Assembly (NCBI GenBank): GCA_037439785.1
Contig: JBBIVJ010000025.1
Location: 5,935-69,934, forward strand
Direction of reading: 5' to 3'
DNA from: Verrucomicrobiales bacterium
GTDB lineage: Bacteria > Verrucomicrobiota > Verrucomicrobiia > Limisphaerales > J093
Length of the DNA stretch: 64,000 nucleotides
This document shows positions 9,244 to 46,232 of the stretch, piece after piece. Position 1 is the stretch's first letter. Each line of letters starts with the position of its first letter. Made by a program: the position numbers and the translations under genes. The notes under the pieces are model-generated. The model was given only the letters and a program-made list of their open reading frames with translations, was not told the DNA's origin and searched no databases.

Positions 9244-9281
9244 GGGAAAGACGGGCGGGGCGAAAGGCCGGCGGGGCCGGC

Positions 9282-9881: not shown

Positions 9882-9924
9882 GGGCAGGGGCGGGCGGCGG
9901 ACACCGCGACGCAGCGGGGCAAAC

Positions 9925-10236
9925 TCACAGCAGGCCCGGCAGGCCGGCGCCGCCGGTGACCTTGCTCATCTCGGCGGCGGCGGTTTCGCGGGCCCGTTGC
10001 AGGGCCTGGTTGACGGCCACCAGCACCAGGTCTTCGAGCAGGGCGGGGTCGGAAGGGGTGATGGCCTGGGGGTCAATGCGGAGCGCGGCCAGGGTGCCGT
10101 CACACCGCGCAGTGGCCCGCACCACCCCGCCGCCGCTGGTGGCCTCGACCGTCCGCTGCGCCAGTTCCGCCTGCACGGCCTGCATCTGCTGCTGCATCCG
10201 CGCGGCCTGTTTCATCAGTTTGCCCAGGCTCGACAT
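9925..10236 (-). CDS. ybaB: YbaB/EbfC family nucleoid-associated protein
   Basis: 103 aa. 'LMKQAARMQQQMQAVQAEL...VEATSGGGVV' is typical of the family, and the gene sits between dnaX and recR as in many bacteria. Confidence 0.9.
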   Translation of the reverse strand: MSSLGKLMKQAARMQQQMQAVQAELAQRTVEATSGGGVVRATARCDGTLAALRIDPQAITPSDPALLEDLVLVAVNQALQRARETAAAEMSKVTGGAGLPGLL

Positions 10237-10245
10237 GCGAGCAGT

Positions 10246-12063: not shown

Positions 12064-12153
12064 GGGCAACGGCGCGCCGGTGCGGACCCGGCGGAGTGGC
12101 GCCAAGGGTGCGAACCGCACCGCGGCGAGGCAATCGCAAATCCTCCCGACGGG

Positions 12154-12180
12154 GGATCAGACGGATCAGACGGATCGGGG
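12154..12180. repeat. 9-bp tandem repeat GGATCAGAC x2 + GGATCGGGG
   Basis: Three head-to-tail 9-mers, each containing GATC. The array lies 2 nt from the stop codon of the giant minus-strand gene and upstream of dnaX. Confidence 0.9.
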
Positions 12181-12182
12181 GC

Positions 12183-15100
12183 TCACGGCGCCACCAGCCG
12201 GTAGAACCGCGCCGGCTCGCTGGCGGTCAACTGCACCCAGAACTCGAGCGGGCCGGTGCTGCCGGGCAGCACATTGGTGAGCACTTCCCAGGTGCCCTCC
12301 CCCAGCACCGGCCGGCTCTCCAGGCGGTAGGCGCGGCCGGCGGCGGCGTTGAAGGTCAGGTACAGGCGGTTGCCCGTCACCCGCAATCCCAGGATGCGCA
12401 CGCTGAACGCCCGCGGGTCGGTGCCGCCCTGGAACTCGCCGCGGTTGCCCAGGCCATCGCCGTCCGGGTCGCCGTCCGCCCCGTCCACGCCCGCGGCCGA
12501 GTCCGGGTTCAGGCCGTGGGCCAGTTCCCAATCATCGGGCAGGCCGTCGCCGTCGCTGTCGGCATCCGGCGGGGGCGTGGGGCGGCCGGGGTTGGGCCGG
12601 GCGGCGCGCCAGTGGCGGGGTTCGTTGCCGTAGGCGGCGGGGTCGAGCCGGTGCAGGGACAAGCCGGTGCCGGCGGCGCCCGCGGGCCAGGGGGCGGCGG
12701 GGCGGTAGTTCACCGCCTCGACCAGCAACTGCGGCACAAAGCCCGCGTCCGGGTGGGGCGGCTGTTGCGGCGTGTCCGGCCGGTACAGGCTCAGCCGCTC
12801 GCCTTCGTTGGCCAACCGGCCGCCGAAGGGACCAAGGACCGGCGTCGCCTCCGGCAGCTTGTAGCGGGTGCGGAAGGCGGCCAGGGCGTCGGGGTTGCTC
12901 TGAGGGTTGAAGCTCACCAGGACCAGGTAGCCGCCGGCGGGCAGGCTGGCCCCGGCCGGGAAACTGAACTGGATGCCGTCCGCCACCCGCCAGGTGTTGG
13001 TGGGGTAATTCACGTCGTAGAGCGCCACGGGAGCGGGGCCGGGGTTGTGCAGCTCGATGAACTCCTCCCCCGGCACCTCGACCGGGATACCGCCCGCCGT
13101 GGTCACCGGCTGGAACAGGATTTCGGAAATCACCACCGGCCCGACCCGCGGTCCGGCGTTGGGCCGGCCGGTGCCCTGGCGGAACTGTTCGAGACTGGTG
13201 GGCCGGTCCATGCCGAAGGTCCGTTCGCGCAGCGGGACGAAATCCACGCCCGCGCTGGTGGGCACCCGGCCCCAGGACTCGCCGTTTTGTGTCGCGCCAA
13301 GCCGCGCCACCGCCCGCCAGCCGGTGAACGCGCCGGCGGCGTCGGTGGCCGAGAGGTACACCTCGTCGCCGTGGGCGGAGTTGAGGGTGAAGGCCCGGTC
13401 GCCCAGGGCCGGGTCGTTGAACTGCACCTCGTAAAAGACCCGGTAACCGCCGGCGGGCAGGATCGTGCCGGCGGGCAGGCGGTACTTGCGCCAGTGTTCG
13501 AGGCTGTTGCTGAGTTGCCAGCCGCTCAGGTCCACCGGCAACGGGCCGGGGTTGTACACTTCGATGGCGTCCTCCCATGGCGGGTCGGTGTGGCTGAGCA
13601 CCTCGTTGATGACCACCGAGTCGAGCGGCAGGTAGTTGGCCGCGCCGGGCGAGGGAGTCTCCGGGAAGCGGACCAGGTTGGTGCCGCCGTCCGGGAACCG
13701 GCCTTCGCTGACCTCGGGCTCCTGCACCAGCAGGTCCACCGAGTCCACCAGCGCGCTCAGCGGGCTGTAGAGGCGGAGGGTCTCCCCCAGACCGTCCAGG
13801 CGGAAGCCCACGTGGTCGGGGCCCTGGTGGGTGTCGCCATCCGCCACCCAGACCGCATAGCCCTGCGGGGCGAGGAAGGTCAGGGGACGGAGGACGTGGT
13901 TGGTCTGGCCGGCCTGCGAGGGGTCGTCGCTGAGGCGGAAGCGGCCGAGGTCCACGGGCAGGGGTTGCGGATTGTACAGCTCGAGCCAGTCCGCGCCGGC
14001 GGTTTGCGCCAGCCACTCGTTGAGCCGCACGGCGGTGGGATCGCCGAGGGTGGCGGGGGCGGCGTTGACTGCGCCGGGGGTGGGCGTGGCCAGCAACTGC
14101 CAGGTGCCGTCGCGCCGGCCGATGCTGAGGTCTTCCAGCGCGAAGCCGAACTCGACCGCGTCCAGCAACCGACCTTGCGGATCGAACAGGTCCACCTCGC
14201 CGCCCGCGTTGGGGAGGCTGCGTCCGGTGTTGAGCGGGGGGGTGGCGGAGGTCGAGGCCGGCCGCGCGCCGTCACAATCCACCACCAGGAAGCCGCCGGC
14301 AGGGAGGCGGACGCCGGCGGGGAAGGTCCATTGGCCGGACCGGGCAGTGCCCACACTCAGGCTGTAGCCGGCCAGGTCCACGGCGTTGCTGCCCAGGTTG
14401 ACCAGTTCGATCCAGTCCGCCGCCACCGTGGCGCCGGGGCGGCGATAATTCCCGGCCCGGGCCAGCACTTCGTGGAGCTGGAGGGTCGAACTGGTGACCA
14501 CGTAGTTGGGCGCGCCGGGGCTGGCGGAGCCGGGGAACGGCGTCAGCGGCCCGGTGCCGTCGGGCAACAGGCCGGAGGAGACGGCTTCGAGGGCGTTTTT
14601 GTAGGTCAGCCGCTGCCGTTCGTTGCCCAGCGGGTCGTAGAGGACCAGTATGTCGCCGGCGGCGGGGAGGCGGAAATCGAGGTGGTCGGGGCCGGGGTTG
14701 CCATCGGCCCGGAGCACGCCGAAGCCGGCGGGGGCGAGGTAGGAGAGGGCGGTGATTTGTTGAAGGGCGTTGCTGGTGCCGATCCAGAGACCCTGCAGGG
14801 GGGCGGGCAGGGCCGGGTCCCGGTTGAAGAACTCGATCCAGTCATCCTCGCCGGCCGGGGCGTTGGCGAGGAATTCGTTGATCACCACCTGGGCGGCCGC
14901 GGCCAGGGCCGCCGGCTCGTTCGGGGCCAGCGGGGTCGGTTCGGTGAGCTGCCAGGTGGCCGCGGCTCCCACGCGGCCGACGCTGTAGCCGGGGGGCTGG
15001 AGGCCGTAGGTGACGGCGACCACGCGACGGCCCTGGGGATCGGTCAGGCGGAGGGTTTCGCCGGTGCGTTTGAGGGCGAAGGGGGCGCGCAGACCGGGCG

Positions 15101-18100
15101 GGGAACCGCCGGGGTCGCACCACAGGCGCAGATAACTGCCGCCGGCCACGGTGGTGTTGGCGGGGAAGGTGAACACGTTGGTGCCGTCGCCGAACAGCCG
15201 CCAGCCGGCCAGGTTCACCGCCGCGGCGCCGGGGTTGAACAGTTCGATCCAGTCGGGGTTTTGGTTGTCGGTGCCCACGGCGAAGAGCTCGTTGAGGCGG
15301 ACGGCGGGCGGGGCGGGTGTCGAGTTGGGGAGGCCGGGGGTGCCACCGGGGAGGGCGCTGGCGTGCCAGTTGGCCGGGTCATCCGGGTCGCCGGCGGGGT
15401 CGGTGATTTCCAGCGAGGGGCCGTCGCCGTCGGGTTCGGGCGGCCAGGCGCCGGCGTCGTCGTACTCGACGGAGGTGACCACGCGGCCGGTGCGGTCCAG
15501 CAGGGCGAGGCGTTCGCCGCCGTTGGCCAGGGCACCCCGGAACCAGCCGGCCACGGTCACGCCGGGGTAGCGGGTGGCGAAGGCTTTGGTGTTGGCAGCG
15601 TTGGCCAGGACCAGACGCGCGCCGGCGGGCAGGGCGGGGAAGGGTTCGGGGAAGCGGAAGTCCACCCCTTCGAGGGTGAAGCCGCTCAGGTCCACGGGCG
15701 TGCCGCCGAGGTTGGCCAGTTCGAGGAACTCGTAGGCGTCGCCGCCGGGCGGGTTGTACATGATTTCGGTGAAGCGGACCGGCAGGCCGAGGGCCTCGAC
15801 CTGGTAGGCCGCCTCGGCCAGGGCGCTCCATTCGCTGCCGTCCAGTGAGCGGGCCTTGAGGACAAGGTCACCGGTGAGGATCAGCGGCCGGGCGGGGTCG
15901 CAGGCCCGGGCGTCCGGGGCGACGGCGCCGGAGAACATGACGCGGGGGTCGGTGCCATTGGTGGTGTACCAGATGGTGCCGCGAAGGTTGGTGAGGGTGA
16001 GCGCGTAGCCGGCGGGGGCGCGGCCGGCGGGCAAACTGAAGGCGGGGGCGTTGCTCGAGGCCAGCAGGCCGGCGCGGTACAGATGGTCGAGCACGTGGCG
16101 GCGGCGCTGGGGAATCCAGGTGGAGCCGATGCGGTCGTTGAAGCCGCTGATCGAGCCGTTGAGGCGGGCCCTGACGGTGTTGTAACGGGCGCGGATGCGG
16201 GCGTCGGTGAGGGCGCCGTCGTTGAAGAAGTGTTTGTGGACGCGGTCGGCGAAGAGCAGCTTGAACTCGGGGAGGACCTTCAGGGCGTTGAAGAGCCGGG
16301 CAATGTCCGCGGTGCCCCAGGGGGGCGAGGTGGTGGAGAGCTGGTTGGCAATGGTGTTCCAGGTGGGCGAGTGGCCCTGCAGGCCGAAGGCCCATTCGGC
16401 GTCCCAGGGGTAGAAGCGGAAGGGCGCTCCGGGCACGCGCTCGCGGGCCACGCGCCAGTTGTTGTGGGGCCAGTCGTCGTTGTCCGCATAGATCAGCGGG
16501 CAGAGGTAGTCCACGAAGTTGGTCAGGTCCAGGCGGCGGGCCAGTTCGAGGTAGTTGGCGGCGTTGGTGAGGTTCACCGAGGTGGCGAAGCTGCGCAGGC
16601 TGTTCCAGGCGGTGGCGTCGCCCTCGCGGACCTCGCCGCCCTGGGCGATGAGGTCCCAGCGCTCGCCGCCGCCGTGGTAGGCGCGCAGGAAGTCCACATC
16701 CACGCGCTCGCAGGGGTTGTAGTAGCCCTTGTACACGCCGTTGAGAAACAGGTTCACGAACGTGCCCACCGCCGCGGGCTGCCCCACGTCCCGCGCCAGG
16801 CTGCGCACAAACTCGTCGGTCAGGAAGGGGTTGGTGTGATCGTTCATGCCCGCCCGCAGCACGATCGTGTCGAACGATTCCTGGGTGGTGTCCGGGAACA
16901 GGCGCACGTTGAGCCGGCCCTGGCCGTACTCGCCGCGGAAGTACAGGCGGAAGGAGTACTTGTTGAAGGGCAACTGGCCGGACTTGTAGTTGTAGTTGCC
17001 GCGCACGTAATCACCACCCTGCACGCGCAGGCCGCAGTCCACCTGGAACCCGCCGTTGTCGGCCGGGTCAATCCACTCGACCGAGACCGGCCGCTCCCAG
17101 GCCGGGCCGCGGTGGCGGGGGTTGGGCGGCTCCATGATGCCCCGGGAGCCGTAGAGGTGGTTCGAGGCGGTGACCAGGCTCAGCGCCGGCAGCCGCTGCC
17201 GCAGCGCCGGCTGGTTCATCAGGTAGGTGTGGGTGAGCACCCGCGAGGGGAGGGCGTTGGATTTGAAGGCCGCCGCGCGGACCATCCGGGTGGTGGTGAT
17301 GGCGATCGGCCCGGCGTACGCGGCGCCGTTGGTCAGCGAGGGCGGGCTGCCGTCCAGCGTGTAGTGGATCACCGCCCCCGGCGTGGGGCAGTACAGCGAG
17401 AGGTTGAAGGGGCGGGTGAAGAAGCCGCGCCGGGCGCTGAAATGGACCTCGGCCACCGCGCCGGTGATGGTGCTGGTGCCGTTGCGCGCGCCGGGGCTGG
17501 CGGGCAGGAAATACTTCCAGGCCCCGTCCCCGCGCTCGCGGCCGTAGGAGTAATCAGGCCCCTGGACGGGGTACTCGACCTCGCTGACCGCCACGCGCGG
17601 CAGTTCCGGGCCGAACAGGCCCACGTAGCCGCCCTCGGGGATGAGCTTGAAGTTGGTGTGCAACCGCCCGCCCGGCCCGGCCGGCCGGCGGTCCTTGCCC
17701 GAGGCAAACACCACCAGATAGCCGCCCGGCGGCAGGTCCACAGCGGGAAACACCCACTGCCCGGGCTCGTCGCGGTCGCGGCTCAGCGACCAGCCCAGCA
17801 GGTTCACCGGCGTAGCCCCCGCGTTGTGAAGCTCGATCCAATCCTCCGGGTCCGCCTCCTCGTCCCGGTGGGCGGTGAAGTTCTCGGCCATGAACTCGGT
17901 CAGCCGCACCTCCGGCCGCGGCGCCGCGGGATTCACCGTGTACTCCCACCCCGCGCCGTTGAAGGGATGCGGCACCAGCGAGTCGCTGGTGATGCCGTGG
18001 CCCGCCTGCCAGGTCACCTGCGCCGGCCCGGCCGGCGCGGCGCCGGCGGGGAACGTGAAGAGGTACGGCCCGGCGCCGATGCCGGTCAGGTTCGTCGCCG

Positions 18101-19136
18101 CCACACCGTTGAGCCGCAGGTCCGCTGCGTCCACCCCCAGCACCGGTTTGTTGAAGCTCACCTCGATCTGGGTCAGCGACCGGACGGTCAGCCCCGCCGG
18201 CGGCTGGCGGAAAACCACCGCGGGTCCGTCCGGGTCCAGCAGTTCATACATCCAGGCCGAGCCGGCGGCGGCGGGGTCGAAGCGCTGCGGCGGCGTCTCG
18301 AGGTCCCGGATGGTTTGCAGCGGACCCCAGCGGACGGAGACCGAACCGTAGGCAGGTTGGGGAAAGCTGAAGGTGTAGGTCCGCCCGCTGCCGCTGACCG
18401 CCGCGGCCGGCTGGTCGTTGACCAGGAAATGCCCGGCCTCGACGCCGGTCACCGTCTCGCTGAACGTCACCGTAATCTGCGTCAACGCCGCCACCGGCCC
18501 CGGTTCGGGCTCGACCGCCACCACCGTGGGTGTGCCCGGCGTGCGCAGCGTGGCCGTCAATTGCGCATCCCACACCAGGTCGCTGCTGCCCAGGGTCACG
18601 TTGATGACCTGCACGGCCAGGACGTTCGTGCCCGCCACCAGCACCGTCTCGGGATCGGCCACCGGGAAGACCAGGTAGCCCGCCGGCTCAGGGGCGTTCT
18701 CGGTGGCCAGGGCGTTGAAGAGCGGCTCGCCCGCGGGCGCGCGCAGGCCCGCCACCGGCCGCCCGTTGATCCAGGCCAGGAAACCGTCGTCGCAGACCGC
18801 CGTCAGTTCGAGCGCCTCGACCAGGCCCGGGTTGGCCAGGGTGAAGGTGCGGCGCAGGTACAGCGTGGAATAGCGGTTCTGCATGTCCTCCAGCGCGGTG
18901 CCGGCGGCGAAGGCCGGCTCGCCGTAGACGAAGGGGGCCGGACCCTCGGCCCAGGCGGTGGCGGCAAAGGTCACGCCCCGCCAGGCGGCCAGGTCGCCGG
19001 GCGTGGGTTCGGCGGTGCCCTTGAAGTAGCGCCAGGTCGAGTTGGTGGCGACCAGGACGGCGGCCTCCTGGGCCCGAAGCGGCGGAAACAGGCAGCCGGC
19101 CAGAGCCAGCGACAGGGAAAGTAGACGGCAATTCAT
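12183..19136 (-). CDS. giant secreted protein with about 8 lamin-tail-like domains, a CotH kinase-family domain and calcium-binding (thrombospondin type-3-like) repeats
   Basis: 2317 aa with signal peptide 'MNCRLLSLSLALAGCLFPPLRAQE'. It has repeated LTD signatures (for example 'NELFAVGTDNQNPDWIELFNPGAAAVNLAGWRL'), a CotH-like block 'FNKYSFRLYF...LRAGMNDHTNPFLTDEF...FLNGVYKGYYN', and 'DADSDGDGLPDDWE...DGDPDGDGLGN' near the C-terminus. Confidence 0.85.
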   Translation of the reverse strand: MNCRLLSLSLALAGCLFPPLRAQEAAVLVATNSTWRYFKGTAEPTPGDLAAWRGVTFAATAWAEGPAPFVYGEPAFAAGTALEDMQNRYSTLYLRRTFTLANPGLVEALELTAVCDDGFLAWINGRPVAGLRAPAGEPLFNALATENAPEPAGYLVFPVADPETVLVAGTNVLAVQVINVTLGSSDLVWDAQLTATLRTPGTPTVVAVEPEPGPVAALTQITVTFSETVTGVEAGHFLVNDQPAAAVSGSGRTYTFSFPQPAYGSVSVRWGPLQTIRDLETPPQRFDPAAAGSAWMYELLDPDGPAVVFRQPPAGLTVRSLTQIEVSFNKPVLGVDAADLRLNGVAATNLTGIGAGPYLFTFPAGAAPAGPAQVTWQAGHGITSDSLVPHPFNGAGWEYTVNPAAPRPEVRLTEFMAENFTAHRDEEADPEDWIELHNAGATPVNLLGWSLSRDRDEPGQWVFPAVDLPPGGYLVVFASGKDRRPAGPGGRLHTNFKLIPEGGYVGLFGPELPRVAVSEVEYPVQGPDYSYGRERGDGAWKYFLPASPGARNGTSTITGAVAEVHFSARRGFFTRPFNLSLYCPTPGAVIHYTLDGSPPSLTNGAAYAGPIAITTTRMVRAAAFKSNALPSRVLTHTYLMNQPALRQRLPALSLVTASNHLYGSRGIMEPPNPRHRGPAWERPVSVEWIDPADNGGFQVDCGLRVQGGDYVRGNYNYKSGQLPFNKYSFRLYFRGEYGQGRLNVRLFPDTTQESFDTIVLRAGMNDHTNPFLTDEFVRSLARDVGQPAAVGTFVNLFLNGVYKGYYNPCERVDVDFLRAYHGGGERWDLIAQGGEVREGDATAWNSLRSFATSVNLTNAANYLELARRLDLTNFVDYLCPLIYADNDDWPHNNWRVARERVPGAPFRFYPWDAEWAFGLQGHSPTWNTIANQLSTTSPPWGTADIARLFNALKVLPEFKLLFADRVHKHFFNDGALTDARIRARYNTVRARLNGSISGFNDRIGSTWIPQRRRHVLDHLYRAGLLASSNAPAFSLPAGRAPAGYALTLTNLRGTIWYTTNGTDPRVMFSGAVAPDARACDPARPLILTGDLVLKARSLDGSEWSALAEAAYQVEALGLPVRFTEIMYNPPGGDAYEFLELANLGGTPVDLSGFTLEGVDFRFPEPFPALPAGARLVLANAANTKAFATRYPGVTVAGWFRGALANGGERLALLDRTGRVVTSVEYDDAGAWPPEPDGDGPSLEITDPAGDPDDPANWHASALPGGTPGLPNSTPAPPAVRLNELFAVGTDNQNPDWIELFNPGAAAVNLAGWRLFGDGTNVFTFPANTTVAGGSYLRLWCDPGGSPPGLRAPFALKRTGETLRLTDPQGRRVVAVTYGLQPPGYSVGRVGAAATWQLTEPTPLAPNEPAALAAAAQVVINEFLANAPAGEDDWIEFFNRDPALPAPLQGLWIGTSNALQQITALSYLAPAGFGVLRADGNPGPDHLDFRLPAAGDILVLYDPLGNERQRLTYKNALEAVSSGLLPDGTGPLTPFPGSASPGAPNYVVTSSTLQLHEVLARAGNYRRPGATVAADWIELVNLGSNAVDLAGYSLSVGTARSGQWTFPAGVRLPAGGFLVVDCDGARPASTSATPPLNTGRSLPNAGGEVDLFDPQGRLLDAVEFGFALEDLSIGRRDGTWQLLATPTPGAVNAAPATLGDPTAVRLNEWLAQTAGADWLELYNPQPLPVDLGRFRLSDDPSQAGQTNHVLRPLTFLAPQGYAVWVADGDTHQGPDHVGFRLDGLGETLRLYSPLSALVDSVDLLVQEPEVSEGRFPDGGTNLVRFPETPSPGAANYLPLDSVVINEVLSHTDPPWEDAIEVYNPGPLPVDLSGWQLSNSLEHWRKYRLPAGTILPAGGYRVFYEVQFNDPALGDRAFTLNSAHGDEVYLSATDAAGAFTGWRAVARLGATQNGESWGRVPTSAGVDFVPLRERTFGMDRPTSLEQFRQGTGRPNAGPRVGPVVISEILFQPVTTAGGIPVEVPGEEFIELHNPGPAPVALYDVNYPTNTWRVADGIQFSFPAGASLPAGGYLVLVSFNPQSNPDALAAFRTRYKLPEATPVLGPFGGRLANEGERLSLYRPDTPQQPPHPDAGFVPQLLVEAVNYRPAAPWPAGAAGTGLSLHRLDPAAYGNEPRHWRAARPNPGRPTPPPDADSDGDGLPDDWELAHGLNPDSAAGVDGADGDPDGDGLGNRGEFQGGTDPRAFSVRILGLRVTGNRLYLTFNAAAGRAYRLESRPVLGEGTWEVLTNVLPGSTGPLEFWVQLTASEPARFYRLVAP

Positions 19137-25604: not shown

Positions 25605-28490
<2,886 letters not shown>

Positions 28491-29085
28491 GGGGTTCGCC
28501 TTCACCATCCGTGGCCCCAGCCGGCGGGCAGGACGCCCGGAACTGGTGGCCGCACTGTTGGCTGAAACCGTCCGCCGGGCAAGCTTGGAACGATCCCGCC
28601 CATCCCACCAACCCGCCGGCAGCAGCAACTTCTGAGTGGCCGCGTCGTCCTCTAACTCCGACCTCCAATCTGCAGGGGTAACCGTTCAAGCCGGCCGCCC
28701 ACAGGAATGCGGGGGGCGGGCCTTGAAGGGATTGTGCCTCCCCGCACACCGGCCAGCCCCCTCCCCAAATGTCGGCGATCCGACAGCCTGAGGCCAAGCT
28801 ACGACTCAAAATGTTTATTGTGAGCATGTTGTGAATAGAAATCCGAAATGGCGGAGCAACCAACCTGCCTGACCAACCGGCATCTTGTCGTATCCAACTT
28901 GTATATCGAATGTTGCGAATAGAATCTTGCCTGGGCTTGGCGATTTTCAACCGCATCTTGTCGGAACTGCTGACAGGTAGGGCTTGGCGCCCAAGCGATT
29001 CAAGGTGTCGCAGTCTCGGCCTAATCTTCTGAACGCCAAGACAATGAGCATCCACATAGGTAGCTCAAGCCAGGTGGACACCCCC

Positions 29086-29100
29086 TGGCACGGTATTTGC
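29086..29100 (+). promoter_or_regulatory. sigma-54 (RpoN) type -24/-12 promoter
   Basis: 'TGGCACggtatTTGC' matches the TGGCAC-N5-TTGC consensus exactly. It lies about 50 nt upstream of ATG 29152, and a hairpin (TGTGCCGG-N7-CCGGCACA, 29113-29135) sits in the predicted leader. Confidence 0.5.
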
Positions 29101-29151
29101 CATTTTTTGGTGTGTGCCGGGTCAAAACCGGCACATACATATTAGGGAAAA

Positions 29152-29766
29152 ATGAAACAGTTCAGGGGTATCTACTGGCCAGCAGGCATCGCCTTGCTGG
29201 GTTTTTTGTGTACAGCCGCCCATGCGATTCCCACCCCAGTGGGAGCCAACCGCGTGTTGGGCATCATTGAGCCGGGCACACCGGCCAACGAGGCCAACGA
29301 GCGCAACATGGTCAATGGGCTCTTGGACGGATGGGACAGCGTCTGGGGCTACAACGACGGTGCCGCTTCGGGAACGGTGTTGGGGGACAATCCAAACGAC
29401 CCGAACCCACCCGACAAACCTGAAAAGTACACCCTCAAATACACGGCCGACACCTTGATCCCCGCGGCTCCCGCTCCTTTGGTCAATGACAACGACTGGT
29501 ACAGGGTCAATTCCGCCAATACCGTCATTGACCTGGGCCACTTCAAGTACGACTGGGTCCTGGCCAAATGGGGCAAGAACGCCGAGGTGTACTACATCGG
29601 CGACCTTACCGGAGAAATCCAACTCCAGCGGATCAACTTCTCCAAAGGCGGGCTTTCACACTACACCCTGTTCAATCGGACGGCGGTGCCGGAGGCCGGT
29701 CAGACAGTGGCACTGCTGGGCCTGGGCTTGGTGGGTTTGGGATGGTACGCCCGGCGTCGGAACTGA
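29152..29766 (+). CDS. secreted protein with VPxxG-CTERM (PEP-CTERM-like) sorting tail
   Basis: Signal peptide 'GIALLGFLCTAAHA'. The C-terminus 'VPEAGQTVALLGLGLVGLGWYARRRN' has the motif, TM helix and Arg cluster. The gene is visibly lower in GC than its surroundings. Confidence 0.7.
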   Translation: MKQFRGIYWPAGIALLGFLCTAAHAIPTPVGANRVLGIIEPGTPANEANERNMVNGLLDGWDSVWGYNDGAASGTVLGDNPNDPNPPDKPEKYTLKYTADTLIPAAPAPLVNDNDWYRVNSANTVIDLGHFKYDWVLAKWGKNAEVYYIGDLTGEIQLQRINFSKGGLSHYTLFNRTAVPEAGQTVALLGLGLVGLGWYARRRN

Positions 29767-29827
29767 CACCACGCTCCTCCAGCCTCAACCCTTTTTCGCC
29801 CACTCCCCGCGACCCCCTCAGGGGAGG

Positions 29828-30661
29828 TCAGCGGGGATTGGCGCGTACTGCCCCTGATTGTGGCACGCGCGGTGAGAGGCGGCGCGATGTCACCGACGCC
29901 GGAGGCTGGCCGGCGGTGGGGATGGCGGCGGTCACCTGCGGACGCGGGACGGAAGGAGGCAGGTTGGGAATCCTTGGCAATCCGGCCTGAGGTGGCGGGC
30001 GCAAACCGCCGACCCAAAGACCCCGCCAGCCTGCGGGCCGGACCGCGGCCACGCTCCCCGAAGAGCGAGAGGGGGGCGGATTTGCGGCGGGACTCGGAGC
30101 AGGGGGGGGCGTCGCGAGCGGTAGTTGAACGGTCGGGCCATTGGTGGGTGCTTCCACCACACCCCCGGCCATCCACAGCCAGGGCCAGCCGGACATCCAC
30201 TGCATCCCACTGAAGGCCGCGCCGGCGGCCACCACGGGGGCGCGCGTCTCACCGGGACCGCCTGACGTCGGGCCCTCCAGGTACACGTGAGGCTCGGCCC
30301 CGCCCGTCGAGCCGCCGGCCAGGCGACCGGTTCCCACATAACGTCCCCCGGCAAAGACATGGACCTTCCCACCGACCACCGGGGCTGCGGAAGTCGCGGC
30401 CGCTTCATTCCGGGCCCGGGCCTGGGCGCGCCATTCCTCGAGCTGGCGCTGCACCTCCGCCAGCCGGGATTCGGTCTGGCTCAACTGCGCCGAGAGCCTG
30501 GCCTGCTCCGCCGCACGCTCGCGCTCGCCGGCGGCCGCCTCCGCCAGTTGGGTCCGCAACGCGAGATTTTCCCGCCCCAGCACCAGGGCCACCAGACCGG
30601 CCATCACGGCCAGCCCGCTTGCAAAGCCGGCCACTCCCCACACCACGCGCCACGTTTTCAT
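29828..30661 (-). CDS. hypothetical membrane-anchored coiled-coil protein
   Basis: Start 'MKTWRVVWGVAGFASGLAVMAGLVALVL' (TM helix), then a coiled-coil-like 'LRTQLAEAAAGERERAAEQARLSAQLSQTESRLAEVQRQLEEW'. The Pro-rich C-terminal half is unconvincing, so the true end is uncertain. Confidence 0.35.
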   Translation of the reverse strand: MKTWRVVWGVAGFASGLAVMAGLVALVLGRENLALRTQLAEAAAGERERAAEQARLSAQLSQTESRLAEVQRQLEEWRAQARARNEAAATSAAPVVGGKVHVFAGGRYVGTGRLAGGSTGGAEPHVYLEGPTSGGPGETRAPVVAAGAAFSGMQWMSGWPWLWMAGGVVEAPTNGPTVQLPLATPPPAPSPAANPPPSRSSGSVAAVRPAGWRGLWVGGLRPPPQAGLPRIPNLPPSVPRPQVTAAIPTAGQPPASVTSRRLSPRVPQSGAVRANPR

Positions 30662-38348: not shown

Positions 38349-39587
38349 TCACCCGGCCCGCGCGGTGTCCGCCGGTTGGACCGCACACCGCCGCAACGTC
38401 AGCCCGGCCCTACCCAGCGCCAGCGCCATCAACGATGCCGCCAGAAAAAACGCCGCCCCCGGCACGTGCACCGGGGCAGGGGGACCGATGAAATACCCGA
38501 ACACCCCCGCCCCGAGCGGTGGTCCCACGATCCCCGCCACGCTTGCCAGGCTGGACAACGCCCCCTGCACCGCGCCCTGTTCGTTCGCCCCCACCGCGCG
38601 CGAGACCAGCCCCTGCGCCGCCGGCCCCGCCAGCCCGCCGAACGCCCCGAACACCAAGATCGCGTACACCACCGTCCCGTTGGGGGCGAGGCCGTAGCCG
38701 GTCATGGCCAGCACACTGATGCCCAGCCCCACCAGCAACGCCCGCCGCTCGCCCAGGGCCGGAATCAGCCGCCGCGCCAGCCCGCCCTGCACCACCACCG
38801 CCATCACCCCCACCACCGCCAGCGAGATGCCCACCTCCCGCGGCGTCCACCCGTAGCGGTAACCGGTGTACAGGACCCAGGTGGTGTGGAGCATCTGGTG
38901 CGCGGTGTGGAGGAGGAAAAACGTCCCCGCCAACCCCACCACCAGCGGGTAGGCCCGCAGCGCCAGGAAGGACCCCAGCGGATGGGCGCGCGACCAGACG
39001 AAGCGCCGCCGCCGCTCCGGCTTCAACGACTCGGGCAGGATCAACAGTCCGTAAAGCCAGTTCAGCAGGGTCAGCCCCGCCGCCACCAGGAACGGCAGCC
39101 GCAGGTTCGCCTGCCCCAGCATCCCGCCCAGCGCCGGTCCGGCGATGAACCCCAGACCGAACGCCGCGCCGATGAGGCCAAAATTCGCGCCGCGTTTCTC
39201 CGGCGGCGAGATGTCCGCGATGTACGCGCTGGCGGCGGTGAAGTTCGCCCCCGTGATCCCCGCAATGATCCGGCCCAGGTACAGCCAGCCGAGCGTCGGC
39301 GCCCACGCCAGCAGCAGGTAATCCAGACCCGCCCCGAACAACGAGCCCAGAATGACCGGCCGCCGCCCGAAGCGGTCCGAGAGATTGCCCAGCACCGGCG
39401 CGAAGACGAACTGCATGAGCGAATACAACGCCGCCAGCACCCCGACCGTGTGCGAGGCGGCCGACACGTCACCGGCCTGGAAACTTTCCACCAGCTTGGG
39501 CAACACCGGGATGATCAGCCCGATGCCCAGCACATCCAGGAAGACCGTGACGAAGATGAAGCCCAGGGCGGGGACGCGGGCGCTCAT
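38349..39587 (-). CDS. MFS transporter (TCR/Tet-like, 12-TM drug:H+ antiporter family)
   Basis: '[19 protein letters not shown]' and MFS motif A '[14 protein letters not shown]'. The start ATG overlaps the upstream gene's stop as ATGA. Confidence 0.85.
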
Positions 39588-42500
39588 GCGGCAGCCGCCT
39601 CGCTCCAGTCTCCCAACTGCTCGACGTACGCCGCCGAGCCGTCGCGCAGCCAGCCGTCCAACTGGGCCGGGTCCTTGAGCTGCTGGCCCCGGAGCCGCGG
39701 CACCACCACAAACTGCGTCTCCACCTCCGGCAGGGTGGTCATGTCCACCCACAGTTTTTCAAACTGCGTGACCGGGAAGACGTCCTCCTGCCCGTGCCCC
39801 CAGCGTTTCTTGACCTCCTTGAGCGTGACGTAGGTGGGCATCTTCGCCGCCAGCGCGCGGATGCCGGCCAGGACGTTGGCCTTGTCCGCCAGATCGGCCC
39901 GGGTGAGCCCGAAGGCGGCCAGCAGCGGGTCCAGGCTGATCCAGCAGGTGTTCGTGTTGTAGTAGGTGAGGCGGAACTCGTCCGCCTCCCGCGGCAGGGC
40001 CAGCCCTTCGACCAGCCGCAGCCGGCCGTTGACGCGGGCCAGCCCGCCGCCGCGGTCCTCCAGCCGGCGGGGGATCACCTCGAAGCTCAGCGTCGCCCCG
40101 CGGCGCAGGTGCAGACCCAGCAGGGCCGGGTCGGCATCGGCGCCCACCGTGTCAATGTTGTGCAGCATCAGGTAGCGGACCTGCGGCCGCTCGGCCAGCA
40201 GGCGGGCGAGCACGCCGTTGCGCAACAGGTTCGGCACCTCGTACCAGTGGCCGACCGGATGCAGGCACTGGAGCGGCACGTTGTCGGTGTAATCGCTGGC
40301 CTCCCCCAGACTGCGCGCCCAGCCGATCAGGGCGTGGCGCAGGCTGTCCCGCACCTTCTGCTGCTGTTCGTCCAGCACCTGCTGGGGCATCTCCTCCCAC
40401 AAAAACCGCAGGTCGCGCTCCGTCGGCACCAGCCGCAGGCCGATGGACCGGCCCGGCGACAACCACACCGGCCCTGCGTAGCCGTAATTCCCGTGCCGCG
40501 CCAGCCACTCGGCGATCGGCTCGTGGGTGAGGTAGCTGGTGGAAATCAGGTGCGGCAACCACGTGCCCGCCAGACGGGACACCCGCCGGCTCTTGGCCAG
40601 GTGGGTCTCCAGGAAGGTGCGGTGGCGCCCGGCCAGTCGGCAGAACGGATGCAGGGCCTTGACCACCCCCGCCCCCTGCGTCCAGCGCGAGCCCGCCCCC
40701 GCCGCCAGCGTGAGCACCGCCACCTCCCCGCGCCGCAACGCCTCCAGCCCCCGCGCCCGGTCCGCCGGTCCCGCCACCCCGGCCCAGATCACGTCTTCCG
40801 GCCGGACGTCCTCGATAACCGCGCTGGGGGGCAGGCGGTTTTGCGCCAGACCAATGCGGCCCTCGCGCAGGTCGCTGCGGATTTGTTCGTGCTGGGCCCG
40901 GTCAAAGCCCAGTTCGGTCAGCAACCGCGCCAGCGACGTCCCCTCCGCCGCCTCGCTCCGGCCCCGCGGCAGCATGGCGTCGAAGAGCGTGGACACCAGG
41001 CCGTGCCATTCGGGGTGGCGACGGCAGACCGCCCCCACCTTGTCCAGTTCGGCCCGCCGGGCGGGGGAGAGGCTCAGGCGGTCCTGGCGCAGGAGCGCCG
41101 GCAGGGTCAGCGCGTAATAGCCGGGGGGCATCAGCGCCTCGGGGCCGGTGCGCAGCTCGGCCCAGGTGCCGCGCTCGTTGATGGCGAAGTCGTACACCAC
41201 CGGCTCCATGGCGAAGGGCAGGGCGTGCTGCAGCTCGCGCTTGGTCGTGCGCATCAGCTCCAGCAGCCGCGCCTGCGCCTCGGCCTTGCGCTGCGGGGCC
41301 ACGATGAAGCCCATGCCCCCGCCGCTCATGCCGCCCAGCATCCAGAACCCCCAGAAGTCCGGCCCGAAGGCCGCCCGCGCCCGCGCGATGAGCGTCTCGG
41401 TGAAATGGTTGGTCGCCCAGGGGATGATGGTCTGGATCGGCCCGAAAAAGTTGCGGGTGGTCGCCGCCCCGATGGCCGGGATGTCCCCCCGTCGCAACGC
41501 CGCCAGGATGTCCTCCCAAATGCCCAGCATGCTCAGGCGCGCCTGCCATTCGGCCGCGCAGCGCAGCAGGTACTTCTCAGTGACCATCTCCAGGATGGGC
41601 CCCACGTTCTGCGCCATGCCGCCGTGCACCAGCACCAGGCTGTCCTGCAACTGGCGGCGCGTCTCCGCCGGGGCATCCGCCTCGCTCAGCAGGCGGTGAT
41701 TGGGCAGGAGCCGGCCGCGGCTGATGCCGTACTCGGGGTCGCCCTCGGTGGCCAGCGCCCCTTCAATCAACTTCATCCCCGGCCACACCCCGCCGGAATC
41801 CTGCCAGCCGCCGCCGCTGCCCCCCAACCACTCCCCCAGCAGCGCCCGCGCCAGCACCAGCCGGCGCTCGGACTCCCGCAACGGCCCGGTCAGCGACGCC
41901 GCCTGCCCCGTGGCCCGCATGCAGACCGACACCAGCGAGGCCAGCAGGCTGGTGGAGACCGCCAGGCGGGAGCCCTTGGGGATGTCGTTGACGCGGCTGA
42001 CCAGCTCCAGCCCGCAGCCGGGGCCGGTGAGCCGGGCCAGCAATGCACCCAGATCATGCCCGCTGCCCTCCAGACCCGGCGGCACCAGCCCGCTGGCAAT
42101 GACCGCCGCCTTGAGCAGCCCCAGGTAGTCCCGCGCAAAGTCAAACACCTCCGCCAGCGAGGTCAGGTCGGCCGTGCACCCCAGGTCCACGCTGGTCAGC
42201 CGCAGCAACGGCTCGGGAATCATCCGCAGGTACACCTCCACCGGCGGCCGCGGCGCCGCATCCCGCCCGTGCACCCCCAGGTCAATCGAGACGTTCAGCA
42301 CCTTCGCCCCCTCCGGGTAGTCCATGCCCAGGAAGAAAATGTCGCTCCACCCGCAGTGGGACAGGTCCATCCGCACCGGTGTGCTTTCGCACAACACCGG
42401 ATAGGTGCCGTCGGCGGCCGGCTGCCGCAGCTCCGGCCGCACCCGCAACGGCTGGTCCAGCGGATGGCCCATCCGGAACATCCACTGGTTGCCCCGCACC

Positions 42501-42922
42501 GAGCGCACGCTGCGCCGGACCTGGTCGGCCAGGGTCTGGAACCCCAGCCGGTAATAGGCCGCCGCCAGCGCGCTGCACTGGCCGTCACTGGGCCCTTCAG
42601 CCGCCTGCCGCGCGAGGAACTGGTCAATCGCCTCCTCGAACCGCCGGTTCAACAGGTGTTCGTAGCCGGCAAACGGCACCAGCCCCTGGCCGGGGCGGAC
42701 CGCCGGCGGCAACCGGTCCGGCAGGTGGAACCGGTGGATGGCGTACAGGAAAAACAACGCCCGCACCCGCTCGTACAGGTTCTCATGCCGGCGCCGGAAC
42801 GCGTCCAGCGCGGCGCACTCGGCCAGCAGGTCGGGGGCGGACAGGCCGGCGCACGCGGCGTCCAGCGCCTGGTGGCGCACCGCCGGGTCGGGGGCGGTGA
42901 TCAGCGGCAGCAGACGGCTCAT
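39584..42922 (-). CDS. fusion protein: N-terminal helical region, GHMP-family (fucokinase-like) sugar kinase domain, and C-terminal UDPGP-family sugar-1-phosphate nucleotidyltransferase domain
   Basis: GHMP motifs: '[20 protein letters not shown]', 'GGGWQDSGG' and '[15 protein letters not shown]'. UDPGP-like motifs: '[14 protein letters not shown]' and '[15 protein letters not shown]'. Confidence 0.7.
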
Positions 42923-42937
42923 GGGCGGGGGCGGGAT

Positions 42938-43786
42938 TCAGCGCACGCGGTTGGCGAGCAGTTCCACCAACAGGCCCAGCACCTCCTCGCGGTCCTGCCC
43001 CTCCAGGGCGAGGGCCAGTTGGGCGGTCAGCAGGCCGTAGCGGGCGCCCAGGTCGTACCGGCGGCCGGCCAGCTCGGCGGCCAGGTACTTTTCCTGGCGG
43101 GCCAGCGCCGCCAGGGCCGGACTCAGTTGCAGCGGTTCACCCGCTTGCAGCCGGGCCTGCTCCGCCTCGAGCAGGGCGAAGACCGTGGGCGTGAGCACGT
43201 GCATGCCGAAAAAGCAGAGGTAGTACCCGGCCCGCAGCCCCGGCACCATCAGGCGCTGCTCGGCCTCGGTGGGGGTGGGTTTTTCGAGCACCTCCCCCAC
43301 CTGATACAGCCCCCGGCGCCCGCTCACCACCCGGCCGCCCACCGCCCCGTAGTAGGGCAGCTTGCTTTCATGGGTGGGCTGCACGGCGGAGACCGCGGCC
43401 TGTTCCGCGGCGGCAATCTGCACCAGTTGCTCGGCGCAGCGGCGCGGCGAGGCCCCCTGGACGTAGAGGTGGTCCCCCACCAGCAACAGGAACGGGTCCG
43501 GCCCGACAAACTCCCGCGCACACAGCACCGCGTGGCCGTAACCGCGCGGCTCGGGCTGCACCAGGAACTGCAGCCGCCCCGCCGCCGCCCCGGCCGCCGC
43601 GGCGTAGGCCGCTTCGTCTCCGGGACGGACCACCACGGCCGGGCTCTCGATGCGGGCGGCGGCCAGTTCCTCCAACAGGATGGCCAGGACGGTTTTGGGC
43701 TGGCCGTCGCGGTCCACGAGCGTTTGCAGGGGCAGATGATGCTCGCGCGGGCCGGCGGCGGTGATGACGGCTTTGCGGATGTCCAT
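42938..43786 (-). CDS. GalU-like sugar-phosphate nucleotidyltransferase with a divergent glycine-rich loop
   Basis: '[17 protein letters not shown]...[14 protein letters not shown]...LLLVGDHLY' parallels GalU ('AVIPVAGLGTRxLPAT...GLGHAVLCA'). The GxGTR loop reads GPREHH. Confidence 0.7.
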
Positions 43787-43952
43787 GGAGTGTGTCGAGT
43801 GGCGGGCGGCCTACCGGCCGCTGGTCTCCCCAGCGGGGCCGGGCGGGCCCGTCGGCCGGGATAGGGTGGCAGCCTAACGGCGGGCGGCCTGCCGGGCAAC
43901 GTGAACCTTGGGGGGAGGGCCTCGGGCGGGCCGGGGTGCGCGCCGCGGCCGG

Positions 43953-46232
43953 TTACGGCGTCGCGGGGGTGTTGGTGGCAGCGGGCGCCGGCGCGGCGGC
44001 CGGGGCGGGAGCCGGCCTGGTGGTGCCGGACCTTTCAGCCTGGGGGCGACGCTGGATTTCCTCGCGCGACTGGCCGGCCCGGCCACCGGTGAGCCGGTGC
44101 ACCCAGCCGAAGCTGTTGAGCAGGCTGTAGAGGAAACCGGCCGCCACAAGCACCGCCAGGAGCTTGGGCCAGAGGGAGGGGCGCTCGGCGAAACGATCGC
44201 CGGCGCCGATCACCGCCCCCGGCGGCACCTGGGCCACCTGGGTGAGCGAGGCGCCGAAGGGCACGTTGATGCGGGCGCGGGTGTTGATGGCCCAGCCGTT
44301 GGCGTCCAGCAGGGGGCCGAGGTTGCGCTTGCGCAGCTTGAGCCAGGCGATGAGCAGCGAGGGGCCGGAGATGATCAGCAGCAGGGCCGCCACCGCCAGG
44401 CAGACCTGCCAGAACGGCAGCTTGAGCAGACCAGTGATGTAGCCGGCCAGGGTGCCGAAAGCGACGCCCAGGGCGCCGAAGGCCACGCCCAACGCGGCCA
44501 CGGTCCCCACGTCCACCTTCTTGGGACCGGGGGCGGTGGCAGGGGCGGTACCGGGCTGGGTGAGGGGGGTGGCCGCTTGGGCCAGCCGGGCGTCTGAAGT
44601 GGCTTCGGCAGCGGCGGCACGCTTGGCGACCTGTTCCTCGATGAAGCGGACGAGTTTTTTGTAGGGGGCCCAGAAGGCCTGCCGGAGGCTGATGGGGTTG
44701 TCCACGATCTTGGTGATGGTGGCATCCCAGTCGCGGCCCTGGCGGTCGTAGAAGACGCCGTTGCGGCCGACCATGAGGTTGTCGGCGTCGCCGTTGGTGA
44801 AGGCGGCCACGATTTGCATTTTCTGGCCACTGGCCTTGTGGGTGCAGTCGCAGTAGGCCAGGTAGGCGCCGGAGAGGCCGGCCAGGGCGGCGTGTTTGGC
44901 GGCGTCCTCGACCCGCAGGCACAACAGGCAGCTCCGCTGGTCCAGGTAGAGGGTGCCGGCCTGGAAGATGGCCGGTTCGCCGCGATCGTAAAAGTCCTTG
45001 AAGTTGACGAAATTCAGGCAGAAGGCATGCAGGTCGCGCAGAAAGCGGAGGAGTTTTTCCACCGCGGCGATGGCCTGCACGTGGGGGTCTTCGGCCCGGT
45101 CGCGCGCGATCAGGGCGGTGAGGGTGGCCTGGCCGGGGCCGGCGAGGATTTCGCGCACGCGGGCGGCGCCGAGCCGCTCCACCGACACCGTGGGTTTGGC
45201 GGCCTGCCAGGCATGGTTGGGGGCCAGTTTGGCCTGGACGGCGGCCCAGTCCGCCTCGGTCAGTTCGGCCCGCTCGCCCAGCAGCGGCTCCAGCGCGGCG
45301 GCCTGGAAGGTGGCCATCGCCCCGGCCCAGGCCGGATGCAGGCCGGTGCGGAGCGGCAACGGTTGGTCCGGGGCGACCGCCGCCAGGGGGAACGCGCCGA
45401 GTTCCGCGGCGGTGATGGAGAGGTCCCGCGCGGCCAGGGCGAGGTAGTCCTTTTCCTCGCGGTTGAGCGCAGCCAGGGCGCGGGGATCGTAGGCGGCCAG
45501 CCGGCAGCGGCCGAAGTAGTCGTCCACCTTCGCCTTGACCGCCTGCAGGGCGGCGGCGGCGGCGGCAGTGGCCTCGCCCAGGGGCAGCACGGCAGGGTCG
45601 GTCTCGGCCTGCTTCAGCCAGGTGTCCCACGCCGCGCACTCGGCAAAGAACTGGTCCACCCGGGCCTGGTTCACGCCCGGCCGGCCGGAACGGTCAGTCT
45701 CCGCCCCCAGGCAGGCGAGGATGTCGGCGATCAACGCGCGGGTGGCATCGTCCTCGGCCGACTCGGCCACGATGACGCCGTCGCCGTTGAAGGCGGTTTG
45801 GGCGAGGATGCGGGTGGTGTCGGCCACGTCCTCGAGGCTGATGGTGGTGGCGTCGGGCTTGCCCAGGCGGGCAAGGATCAGGCGGGCCGTCTCGCGGAGG
45901 TTCTGACCTTCGGGGGTGGCGTCGTGGATCGAGGCCAGCGGCAGGATGGAGGTGTGCCTGAGCAGGTCGTCGGGGTTCTTGAGCAGGTGACCGGTCCAGC
46001 GGATGGCCTGGATGAGTTCGGGGGCGCGGATGCGGCCGTCGCGGTCGGCATCGAGCAGGGCCAGGGTCTTGGGGTCGAATTCCAGGCCGGTGGCCGGGCA
46101 GGCCAGGGCCACCCAGAGCTTTTGATCGAGTGAATCCAGGGCCAGCAGGTCGGCCCCGGTGTCCAGCCGGACCTGGTGGAAGCCGCCGGCGCGGAAAAAT
46201 CTCCACGGGTGGTTGGGAGCAGAGGGGTTCAT
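43953..46232 (-). CDS. large uncharacterised protein with one canonical EF-hand loop and C-terminal transmembrane helices
   Basis: Start at 'MNPSAPNHPWRFFRAGGF'. 'DADRDGRIRAPE' fits DxDxDGxIxxxE. The C-terminal helices are 'VAALGVAFGALGVAFGTLAGYI', 'VCLAVAALLLIISGPSLLIAWL' and 'LLAVLVAAGFLYSLL'. Confidence 0.65.
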   Translation of the reverse strand: MNPSAPNHPWRFFRAGGFHQVRLDTGADLLALDSLDQKLWVALACPATGLEFDPKTLALLDADRDGRIRAPELIQAIRWTGHLLKNPDDLLRHTSILPLASIHDATPEGQNLRETARLILARLGKPDATTISLEDVADTTRILAQTAFNGDGVIVAESAEDDATRALIADILACLGAETDRSGRPGVNQARVDQFFAECAAWDTWLKQAETDPAVLPLGEATAAAAAALQAVKAKVDDYFGRCRLAAYDPRALAALNREEKDYLALAARDLSITAAELGAFPLAAVAPDQPLPLRTGLHPAWAGAMATFQAAALEPLLGERAELTEADWAAVQAKLAPNHAWQAAKPTVSVERLGAARVREILAGPGQATLTALIARDRAEDPHVQAIAAVEKLLRFLRDLHAFCLNFVNFKDFYDRGEPAIFQAGTLYLDQRSCLLCLRVEDAAKHAALAGLSGAYLAYCDCTHKASGQKMQIVAAFTNGDADNLMVGRNGVFYDRQGRDWDATITKIVDNPISLRQAFWAPYKKLVRFIEEQVAKRAAAAEATSDARLAQAATPLTQPGTAPATAPGPKKVDVGTVAALGVAFGALGVAFGTLAGYITGLLKLPFWQVCLAVAALLLIISGPSLLIAWLKLRKRNLGPLLDANGWAINTRARINVPFGASLTQVAQVPPGAVIGAGDRFAERPSLWPKLLAVLVAAGFLYSLLNSFGWVHRLTGGRAGQSREEIQRRPQAERSGTTRPAPAPAAAPAPAATNTPATP

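Follow-up and report, generated by a model that had tools for sequence, protein, structure and literature searches.

Within a 64,000-nucleotide stretch of the genome of a Verrucomicrobiales bacterium (contig JBBIVJ010000025.1; the whole stretch is referred to below as the window) four consecutive genes, designated here A, B, C and D in the order of reading, occupy the minus strand between positions 38349 and 46232, and a radical SAM gene is transcribed divergently from A. A first-pass annotation of this DNA regarded these genes as a single uncharacterised system of sugar salvage, activation or signalling. According to the comparative data presented here, the conserved core is probably smaller: a translationally coupled cassette of genes B and C, distributed in Verrucomicrobiota and some neighbouring lineages, in which C codes for a bifunctional fusion of a sugar kinase with a nucleotide-sugar pyrophosphorylase, with A, D and the radical SAM gene as mere neighbours. 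The notion of an uncharacterised sugar-activating system thus survives for B and C, which form a conserved pair with no characterised member found, and is lost for the other three genes.

Conservation of the gene order was assessed in 160 C-centred loci, half of them taken from species genomes and half from metagenome contigs. One genome per species was scanned; at least 595 contained a relative of C, and from these 80 loci (69–91% identity) were retained with 10-kb flanks. The metagenome scan was independent, being seeded with distant members of the C family, and 70 of its loci belong to clade I. Neighbours were tested by tblastn with A, B, D, the radical SAM protein, secA and H+-PPase, as well as by unsupervised clustering of open reading frames (ORFs). 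Both approaches agree that B is the sole recurrent neighbour of C. Of the 73 genome loci with upstream sequence, 60 carry B immediately before C in the same orientation, the median gap being 15 nt, and B also precedes C in 67 of the 70 clade-I metagenome loci. The next commonest neighbour cluster was present in at most 6 of the 80 genome loci, and no phosphatase, epimerase, glycosyltransferase or transporter recurred near clade-I C, since no cluster exceeded this level. Pairs of B and C with overlapping stop and start codons were registered in a Chloroflexi-labelled contig (C 68%, B 63% identity) and in a Bacteroidota-type contig (C 58%, B 52%); the loci with overlap are L089 and L090. At the same time A and the radical SAM gene were found in none of the 160 loci, and D was found neither in the 65 genome loci with downstream sequence nor in the 80 metagenome loci. 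Synteny, which the first-pass annotation had itself named as the test able to refute its proposal, therefore establishes the two-gene module and refutes the four-gene one.

The layout of the window nevertheless invites the idea that all four genes together with the radical SAM gene constitute one system of sugar uptake, activation or signalling, equipped with a Ca-responsive membrane protein A and a permease D of the major facilitator superfamily (MFS). The genes do lie on one strand and are separated by short junctions, exactly as had been described: 166 bp between A and B, 15 bp between B and C, while the stop codon of C and the start codon of D overlap as ATGA (...GCC GCA TGA / ATG AGC GCC); the A–B spacer yielded no terminator-like hit. 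Some elements of this order recur elsewhere. In the closest relative found (locus L086; A 84%, B 91%, C 90.5% identity) the radical SAM gene and A-B-C are arranged in the same way and followed by secA, and in loci L001 and L002 (C 85%), fetched apart from the 160, B-C is followed by a 75-aa ORF and D. However, L086 contains no MFS gene, L001 and L002 have a TMEM260/TPR gene in place of A, and locus L006 (C 91%) retains B-C only. The relatives that share parts of the order are very close (C 85–91% identity), so that descent from a recent common ancestor accounts for the resemblance. Apart from the window, A adjoins B-C only in L086, and D stands beside C only in L001 and L002. Moreover, homologues of A with 63–78% identity occupy three unrelated neighbourhoods away from B-C (L003, L004 and L005), and D, as described below, is of the drug/H+ antiporter type. 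Taken with the zero counts in the C-centred loci, this renders the one-system explanation highly improbable. What the window shows is a mosaic of recent and local origin, built around B-C as the constant part, and the lesson of this locus is that close packing of genes, even with overlapping stop and start codons, was insufficient in a single genome to define a functional module.

Outside the main clade the surroundings of C are different. A Nitrospirota-type clade (L088, positions 8001–13782; L092, L093, L096, L098 and L111), whose C proteins of ~1,068 aa are 44–47% identical to that of the window, has a DUF362 gene directly downstream of C instead of B upstream; in L088 and L096 it is followed by genes for a methyltransferase and an inositol-monophosphatase-family protein, the latter being three genes downstream of C. 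In the Bacteroidota-type locus L090 (11898–17637) the pair B-C precedes two epimerase/dehydratase genes and a canonical FKP gene of 955 aa, so that C and FKP coexist in one nucleotide-sugar cluster. The most divergent homologue of C (P0284, 33% identity; L087, 6562–18272) resides among six radical SAM genes together with genes for a GT2 glycosyltransferase and a xylose-isomerase-like AP_endonuc_2 protein, in a context unlike that of the main clade.

Protein C consists of an N-terminal helical domain, a GHMP-type anomeric sugar kinase, a helical linker and a UDPGP-type pyrophosphorylase (Table 1). It exceeds the threshold of the Pfam UDPGP family (PF01704; 39.9 bits with a cut-off of 22), and its residues 180–560 match the fucokinase half of Fkp (NF009948, 7e-22; PDB 9iip/5yys). 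The profile search against PDB returned UGPase with 1e-24 and the Fkp kinase with 1e-22. The AlphaFold2 (AF2) model, built on an alignment of 23 homologues, had a mean predicted local distance difference test score (pLDDT) of 88.8 and a predicted template-modelling score (pTM) of 0.89, and each of its halves matches the expected fold: in Foldseek the template-modelling (TM) score was 0.82 for the Fkp kinase, 0.84 for the heptose-7-phosphate kinase WcbL and ~0.55–0.62 for UAP1/UGPase. More than 8,000 close homologues of C were found, and those that are named come almost exclusively from Verrucomicrobiota. Several clusters of homologues (P0017, P0088, P0114, P0117 and P0507; 1,387–1,480 aa) possess an extra PF01797 domain (Y1 transposase / REP-associated RayT); they may be true fusions or RayT genes merged with C by the gene caller. 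Two distant relatives, P0264 (2318 aa) and P0280 (2939 aa), are giant multidomain proteins with a ROK sugar-kinase domain, and P0264 additionally carries a domain of the inositol-monophosphatase family; as a possible "Rosetta-stone" hint, they might reflect a route that runs through kinase, kinase, phosphatase and pyrophosphorylase.

For FKP, mutagenesis and structural data defined Asp762 as the general base and Arg592 and Glu751 as essential residues; hydroxyl groups of fucose are held by Trp599, Asp601, Thr602 and Gln761, while ATP-Mg is bound by the loop 712–720 and Ser719 (PMC11982464). These positions were mapped onto C by HMMER alignment, and their conservation was estimated over 80 close and 23 diverse homologues (down to 29% identity). 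The catalytic Arg of motif I, the essential Glu and the general-base Asp of motif III are all present in C as R184, E364 and D375, respectively, and three of the four sugar contacts correspond to W192 (Trp599), D194 (Asp601) and Q374 (Gln761), the fourth, Thr602, being replaced by I195. None of the six preserved residues varies in the 80 close homologues, and five of them stay fixed down to 29% identity, W192 being substituted in the three most distant members. The metal-binding Ser719 is represented by the invariant S323. The phosphate loop, however, does not conform to the canonical P-x-G-S-G-L-G-[ST]-S: R319 stands for Gly715, A321 for Gly717, and there is one extra residue, the Ser being retained. 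In the pyrophosphorylase half the motifs L-A-A-G-A-G-S-R-W...K755, PVG891H892 and E948...D956-R-G-G are invariant or conserved by more than 90%. Over the whole of C, the motifs PVRxD, PxGH and EV..D.GGG proved to be invariant or nearly so among the 80 homologues.

Databases of NCBI and JGI name members of the C family either UTP--glucose-1-phosphate uridylyltransferase or UDP-GlcNAc pyrophosphorylase / galactokinase-like kinase. If the former part of these names is taken literally, C would simply be a large UDP-glucose or UDP-GlcNAc pyrophosphorylase, in which the kinase half serves as a non-catalytic sensor. The deviation of the phosphate loop from the GHMP consensus agrees with this, as does the failure of Pfam GHMP_kinases_N to match the window protein. 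Yet the kinase base, Arg and Glu are conserved in clade I along with the sugar-binding Trp, Asp and Gln, and five of these six residues persist in remote homologues, which would scarcely be expected unless the domain is catalytic or, at the minimum, binds a sugar specifically. A purely sensory role of the kinase half is consequently very improbable.

One can rather assume that C acts as a bifunctional enzyme of nucleotide-sugar salvage, leading from free sugar through sugar-1-phosphate to a nucleoside diphosphate (NDP) sugar. The GHMP domain would use ATP to phosphorylate the anomeric hydroxyl of the free sugar, and in the UDPGP-type domain the resulting sugar-1-phosphate would react with a nucleoside triphosphate, UTP being the probable one, to give the NDP-sugar and pyrophosphate. 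Similarity of the kinase active site to that of fucokinase suggests a fucose- or galactose-like configuration at C2–C4 of the sugar. A modified scheme should be considered here, in which the GHMP domain, like HddA and WcbL, acts on a sugar phosphate, so that a sugar-1,n-bisphosphate is formed and a separate phosphatase yields sugar-1-phosphate before the UDPGP step. WcbL is an equally good structural match, the Gly of the phosphate loop is replaced by the invariant R319, distant relatives P0264 and P0280 are fused to inositol-monophosphatase-family and ROK sugar-kinase domains, and in two loci of the Nitrospirota-type clade an inositol monophosphatase gene lies near C. Against this scheme, the fucose-contacting residues of FKP are conserved in C, the 150 clade-I loci show no phosphatase gene as a recurrent neighbour, and the observations on fusions and phosphatase genes are few and come from distant clades. 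We therefore think it unlikely that C proceeds through a bisphosphate.

Gene B codes for a protein of the Pfam NTP_transferase family (42 bits, cut-off 21), which scores 90.3 bits with the GalU model TIGR01099, far under the equivalog cut-off of 326.8. Its best counterpart in PDB is YngB (3e-23 over aa 70–277), whereas the N-terminal loop aligns poorly. The signature loop is non-canonical: the family consensus reads AAG[KR][NS]QRxLPLQT, its counterpart in GalU being AGLGTRFLPATK, and the copy from the window contains GPREH, with His at the position taken by Arg in 55 of 62 relatives. B of the window thus departs from the GalU signature, a GLGTR loop with the catalytic Arg followed by LPATK. 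The sugar-phosphate-binding motif VEKP and the Mg-binding motif GD(D/H) (VGDHLY) are conserved, and so is an insertion specific for this family. In GalU the double substitution T20M/R21H within GLGTR lowered the activity ~500-fold, and GalF, a weakly active paralogue of GalU, naturally has Met-His at that position (PMC4643126). Tight, co-evolving and often overlapping linkage of B with C argues for their physical or kinetic partnership. B may then be an obligate partner of C, GalU-like with a replaced GLGTR loop, and it could function either as a low-activity or regulatory subunit, like GalF beside GalU, or as a second pyrophosphorylase of other specificity. Partial B-like N-termini were observed on two homologues of C (P0293 and P0325); these look like merged or frameshifted gene calls, and a fusion of B with C in some genomes was not relied on.

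Pairing of one kinase with two different nucleotidyltransferases is accounted for by a catabolic reading too, from which one may infer a pyrophosphorylase route of the Isselbacher type, bringing a galactose-like sugar into glycolysis without GalT. C would then make sugar-1-phosphate and from it a UDP-sugar and, after epimerisation, B would run in reverse, converting UDP-glucose and pyrophosphate to glucose-1-phosphate and UTP. Retention of the GalU motifs VEKP and GDH in B fits such a role, the sugar pocket of the kinase is similar to the one in fucokinase, whose substrate has the L-galacto configuration, and high conservation across the sampled lineages suits central carbon metabolism better than optional salvage. 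However, there is no epimerase among the conserved neighbours, the nucleotide-binding loop of B is non-canonical, and the window copy lacks the Arg needed in GalU (PMC4643126). All this leaves the catabolic route a rather small chance. A bolder interpretation, also doubtful although somewhat less remote, is that B and C compose an unrecognised two-subunit enzyme producing an unusual nucleotide sugar, and that conservation of C over its 1,100 residues reflects an essential role instead of optional salvage. If so, the product could be a fucose- or galactose-like sugar in UDP-activated form, or one made via a bisphosphate, intended for a core envelope or storage polymer, and the Arg-bearing phosphate loop and the replaced GLGTR loop would mark new chemistry or regulation between the two nucleotidyltransferase folds.

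Several observations weigh against the salvage cassette as formulated above. In about 13 of the 73 genome loci C has no adjacent B, and the Nitrospirota-type clade lacks B altogether. The unusual phosphate loop of the kinase (Gly715 and Gly717 exchanged, one residue added) means that ATP-dependent kinase activity is not certain, and structural similarity to WcbL, as good as that to fucokinase, means that the substrate could be a sugar phosphate. In the genome loci, which are labelled as several orders, C retains 69–91% identity; so much identity would not be anticipated in an enzyme of optional salvage, and it is suggestive of a more central function. The ATGA overlap argues for co-expression of D with C in this genome, and the literature search found neither a paper nor an enzyme assay dealing with any member of the C family. 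Even with these reservations, the coupled B-C pair with bifunctional C remains the probable interpretation.

The product of gene D is assigned with confidence to the MFS (MFS_1, 197 bits with a cut-off of 33). It scores 346 bits over aa 10–367 with the Tet(A)/(B)/(C) model NF012174, under the family cut-off of 475, while Sugar_tr matches it only at aa 44–187. By its sequence, D is an efflux pump of the Tet/DHA1 type, that is a drug/H+ antiporter rather than a sugar porter, and the import step ascribed to it in the sugar pathway has to be abandoned: its best matches are tetracycline and drug-efflux DHA1 transporters, so no import step follows from its presence. Its identity to the counterpart in L001 (13716–14915) is 90%, against 80% for B and 85% for C when the two loci are compared, and the two closer relatives, L086 and L006, have no D. 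Such a combination suggests recent transfer or repeated loss. D is probably a late and sporadic addition that, in this genome, runs in the direction of C and overlaps it at the stop and start codons.

Gene A encodes a protein with an EF-hand loop and three hydrophobic segments, which were called correctly from the beginning, as were the nucleotidyltransferase fold of B, the kinase/UDPGP fusion of C and the MFS nature of D. Residues D61, D65, G66, R67, R69 and E72 of the loop are invariant in 37 homologues, and the stretch KLRKRNLGPxLDxNGWA following the second transmembrane segment is invariant in the family. More than 7,800 homologues are all unnamed, and the few with an organism label belong to Verrucomicrobiota. 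No family in Pfam, NCBIfam or PADLOC was above threshold for A. The EF-hand_6 model gave 13.4 bits against the required 25, with sub-threshold matches in 19 of the 37 members (best E 0.0023), and reading of the alignment revealed no second canonical EF-hand loop, only a degenerate NGDGVIV at aa 149–155. Structure prediction, which the first-pass annotation proposed for this 759-aa protein, gave a mediocre model (pLDDT 65.5) with a helical region at aa ~50–410, where helices 54–60 and 70–83 flank the EF-hand loop; Foldseek comparison of this model with PDB yielded no significant match, none being better than E = 0.4. Resemblance to alpha-pore-forming toxins (PaxB, SmhA; E = 0.4–4) was rejected as chance. 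Genomic neighbours of the A family differ in every lineage examined; one contig with an A homologue comes from the same metagenome sample (3300037501) as a contig with B-C-D. No characterised member of the family was found in the literature, nothing links A to sugar metabolism, and its homologues are located at unrelated places, so that A does not stand as a Ca-responsive component of a sugar module. It represents an orphan family of EF-hand membrane proteins, which is separate from the B-C cassette and deserves its own study.

The radical SAM gene contains the motif CPWRCVMC. Its start is probably the GTG at 46492, as set by the 361-aa homologue in L086, and this gives a divergent spacer of 259 bp between it and A, confirming the divergent transcription noticed earlier. 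Its matches to known families are weak: 79 bits with TIGR01210 (RaSEA) against a cut-off of 212, and 20.7 bits with Pfam Radical_SAM against 29.5. The gene is absent from the A-centred loci L003–L005 and accompanies A-B-C only in the window and L086; both it and A seem merely to adjoin the cassette in this sub-lineage.

All four minus-strand frames look like real genes. The G+C content of the window is ~70%, and that of their third codon positions is 0.89–0.93, as is typical of real genes in such DNA; for each of the four proteins there are thousands of homologues. The start of A is the ATG at 46232, backed by the N-termini of 36 homologues, which led us to reject a longer 801-aa ORF, and the start of D agrees with the gene called in L001. 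The promoter scan found no sigma-70-like site. Terminator-like matches all fell within coding regions, and their number (8 versus 4.2 ± 2.3 expected from shuffles) is uninformative. The full window was searched with Rfam (gathering thresholds) and for tRNA genes with no match, so that no riboswitch or RNA gene was detected in the spacers. PADLOC indicated no relation to defence systems for any of the five proteins.

Table 1. Genes, domains and segments of the locus, with positions in the window
Feature	Length or residues	Position, nt	Strand	Description
A	759 aa	43953–46232	−	EF-hand loop and transmembrane protein, no known family
A, EF-hand loop	aa 61–72	46017–46052	−	DADRDGRIRAPE; fits the consensus D-x-D-x-D-G-x-I-x-x-x-E
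A, first hydrophobic/transmembrane segment	aa 578–599	44436–44501	−	
A, second hydrophobic/transmembrane segment	aa 610–628	44349–44405	−	
A, third hydrophobic/transmembrane segment	aa 687–711	44100–44174	−	
B	282 aa	42938–43786	−	GalU/YngB-like nucleotidyltransferase, core gene
C	1112 aa	39584–42922	−	sugar-kinase/UDP-sugar-pyrophosphorylase fusion, core gene
C, N-terminal helical domain	aa 1–170	42413–42922	−	
C, GHMP domain	aa ~175–565	41228–42400	−	anomeric sugar kinase
C, helical linker	aa ~566–700		−	
C, UDPGP-type domain	aa ~701–1105	39608–40822	−	nucleotide-sugar pyrophosphorylase
D	412 aa	38349–39587	−	MFS transporter with 12 transmembrane segments, DHA1/Tet(A)-like efflux type
Radical SAM gene	361 aa	46492–47577	+	CxxxCxxC motif, start inferred; divergent from A

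The rest of the window contains genes for the 2-oxoglutarate dehydrogenase complex, a PAS histidine kinase, secA, H+-PPase, HflX and PEP-CTERM proteins, and the only sugar-related gene found there, of the GlcNAc-2-epimerase family, is ~19 kb away. A patch of lower G+C content (0.63 versus ~0.70) at 28000–30000 includes an ORF of 204 aa (29152–29766, plus strand), in which an N-terminus resembling a signal peptide and a tail of the PEP-CTERM kind (VPEAG...RRRN) can be recognised by eye; the protein at 50448–51452 matches the Pfam PEP-CTERM model. A long minus-strand ORF (12183–19136; 2,317 aa) has gene-like codon statistics with 0.92 G+C at third codon positions.

Enzymes of the FKP kind, which unite a sugar-1-kinase with a pyrophosphorylase, are valued as tools for making nucleotide sugars in one pot, and they define salvage routes of envelope glycans. 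The C family would add to them a large and conserved variant with reversed domain order, a eukaryote-type UDPGP domain and a fixed GalU-like partner, relatives of which were found in at least 595 species, those examined being mostly labelled Verrucomicrobiota. Identification of the sugar used by C would close a gap in what is known of how a phylum abundant in soil and freshwater metabolises carbohydrates, and could give a new biocatalyst.

Compared with known systems, D aligns end to end with the Tet(A)/(B)/(C) model, and remains a relative rather than a tetracycline pump, being below the cut-off. For B the nearest parallel is the GalU/GalF pair of enterobacteria. B is GalU/YngB-like over aa 70–277, keeps VEKP and, like GalF, lacks a regular GLGTR loop, the Arg position being occupied by His in the window copy. 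It differs in its scores, which miss the cut-offs of GalU and GalF by a wide margin (90 versus 327; 36–38 versus 534–659), in the family-specific insertion and in that its partner is a UDPGP-type enzyme, not a GalU paralogue.

The closest analogue of C is FKP of Bacteroides, where a GHMP anomeric sugar kinase and a nucleotide-sugar pyrophosphorylase are also united in one polypeptide; the C-terminal domain of FKP is the best match to the kinase of C in both sequence and structure, and the catalytic Arg, Glu and Asp, as well as the sugar-contacting Trp, Asp and Gln, are common to both (PMC11982464). In C the order is reversed, the kinase being first and the pyrophosphorylase last (Table 1), the pyrophosphorylase is of the long eukaryotic UDPGP type instead of the Fucose_pyrophosphorylase/beta-helix type, an N-terminal helical domain of 170 aa is added, the P-loop is altered, and a separate GalU-like gene accompanies the enzyme. 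Presence of canonical FKP beside B-C in L090 means that C is not simply a replacement of FKP. Fusion of a sugar-1-kinase to a pyrophosphorylase for nucleotide-sugar salvage, as proposed for C, is also known in zebrafish DrGKUP, a glucuronokinase/putative UDP-GlcA pyrophosphorylase, whose pyrophosphorylase half is conserved although its activity was hard to demonstrate (PMC3938481); its short bacterial-type nucleotidyltransferase is N-terminal and the kinase C-terminal, an order that is inverted in C, where the pyrophosphorylase is of the UDPGP type. With the UDPGP family (USP, UGP, UAP1/AGX) C shares the match of its C-terminal 400 aa to PF01704 and the motifs G-x-G-[ST]-R...K, P-x-G-H and E...D-x-G-G; it differs in that only the central 120 positions align by sequence and in that the domain is fused to a kinase. 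The known bifunctional sugar-1-kinase/pyrophosphorylases, FKP, plant FKGP and DrGKUP among them, begin with a short nucleotidyltransferase and end with the GHMP kinase. C is thus regarded as a variant of these enzymes, and its proposed mechanism as an extension of known chemistry.

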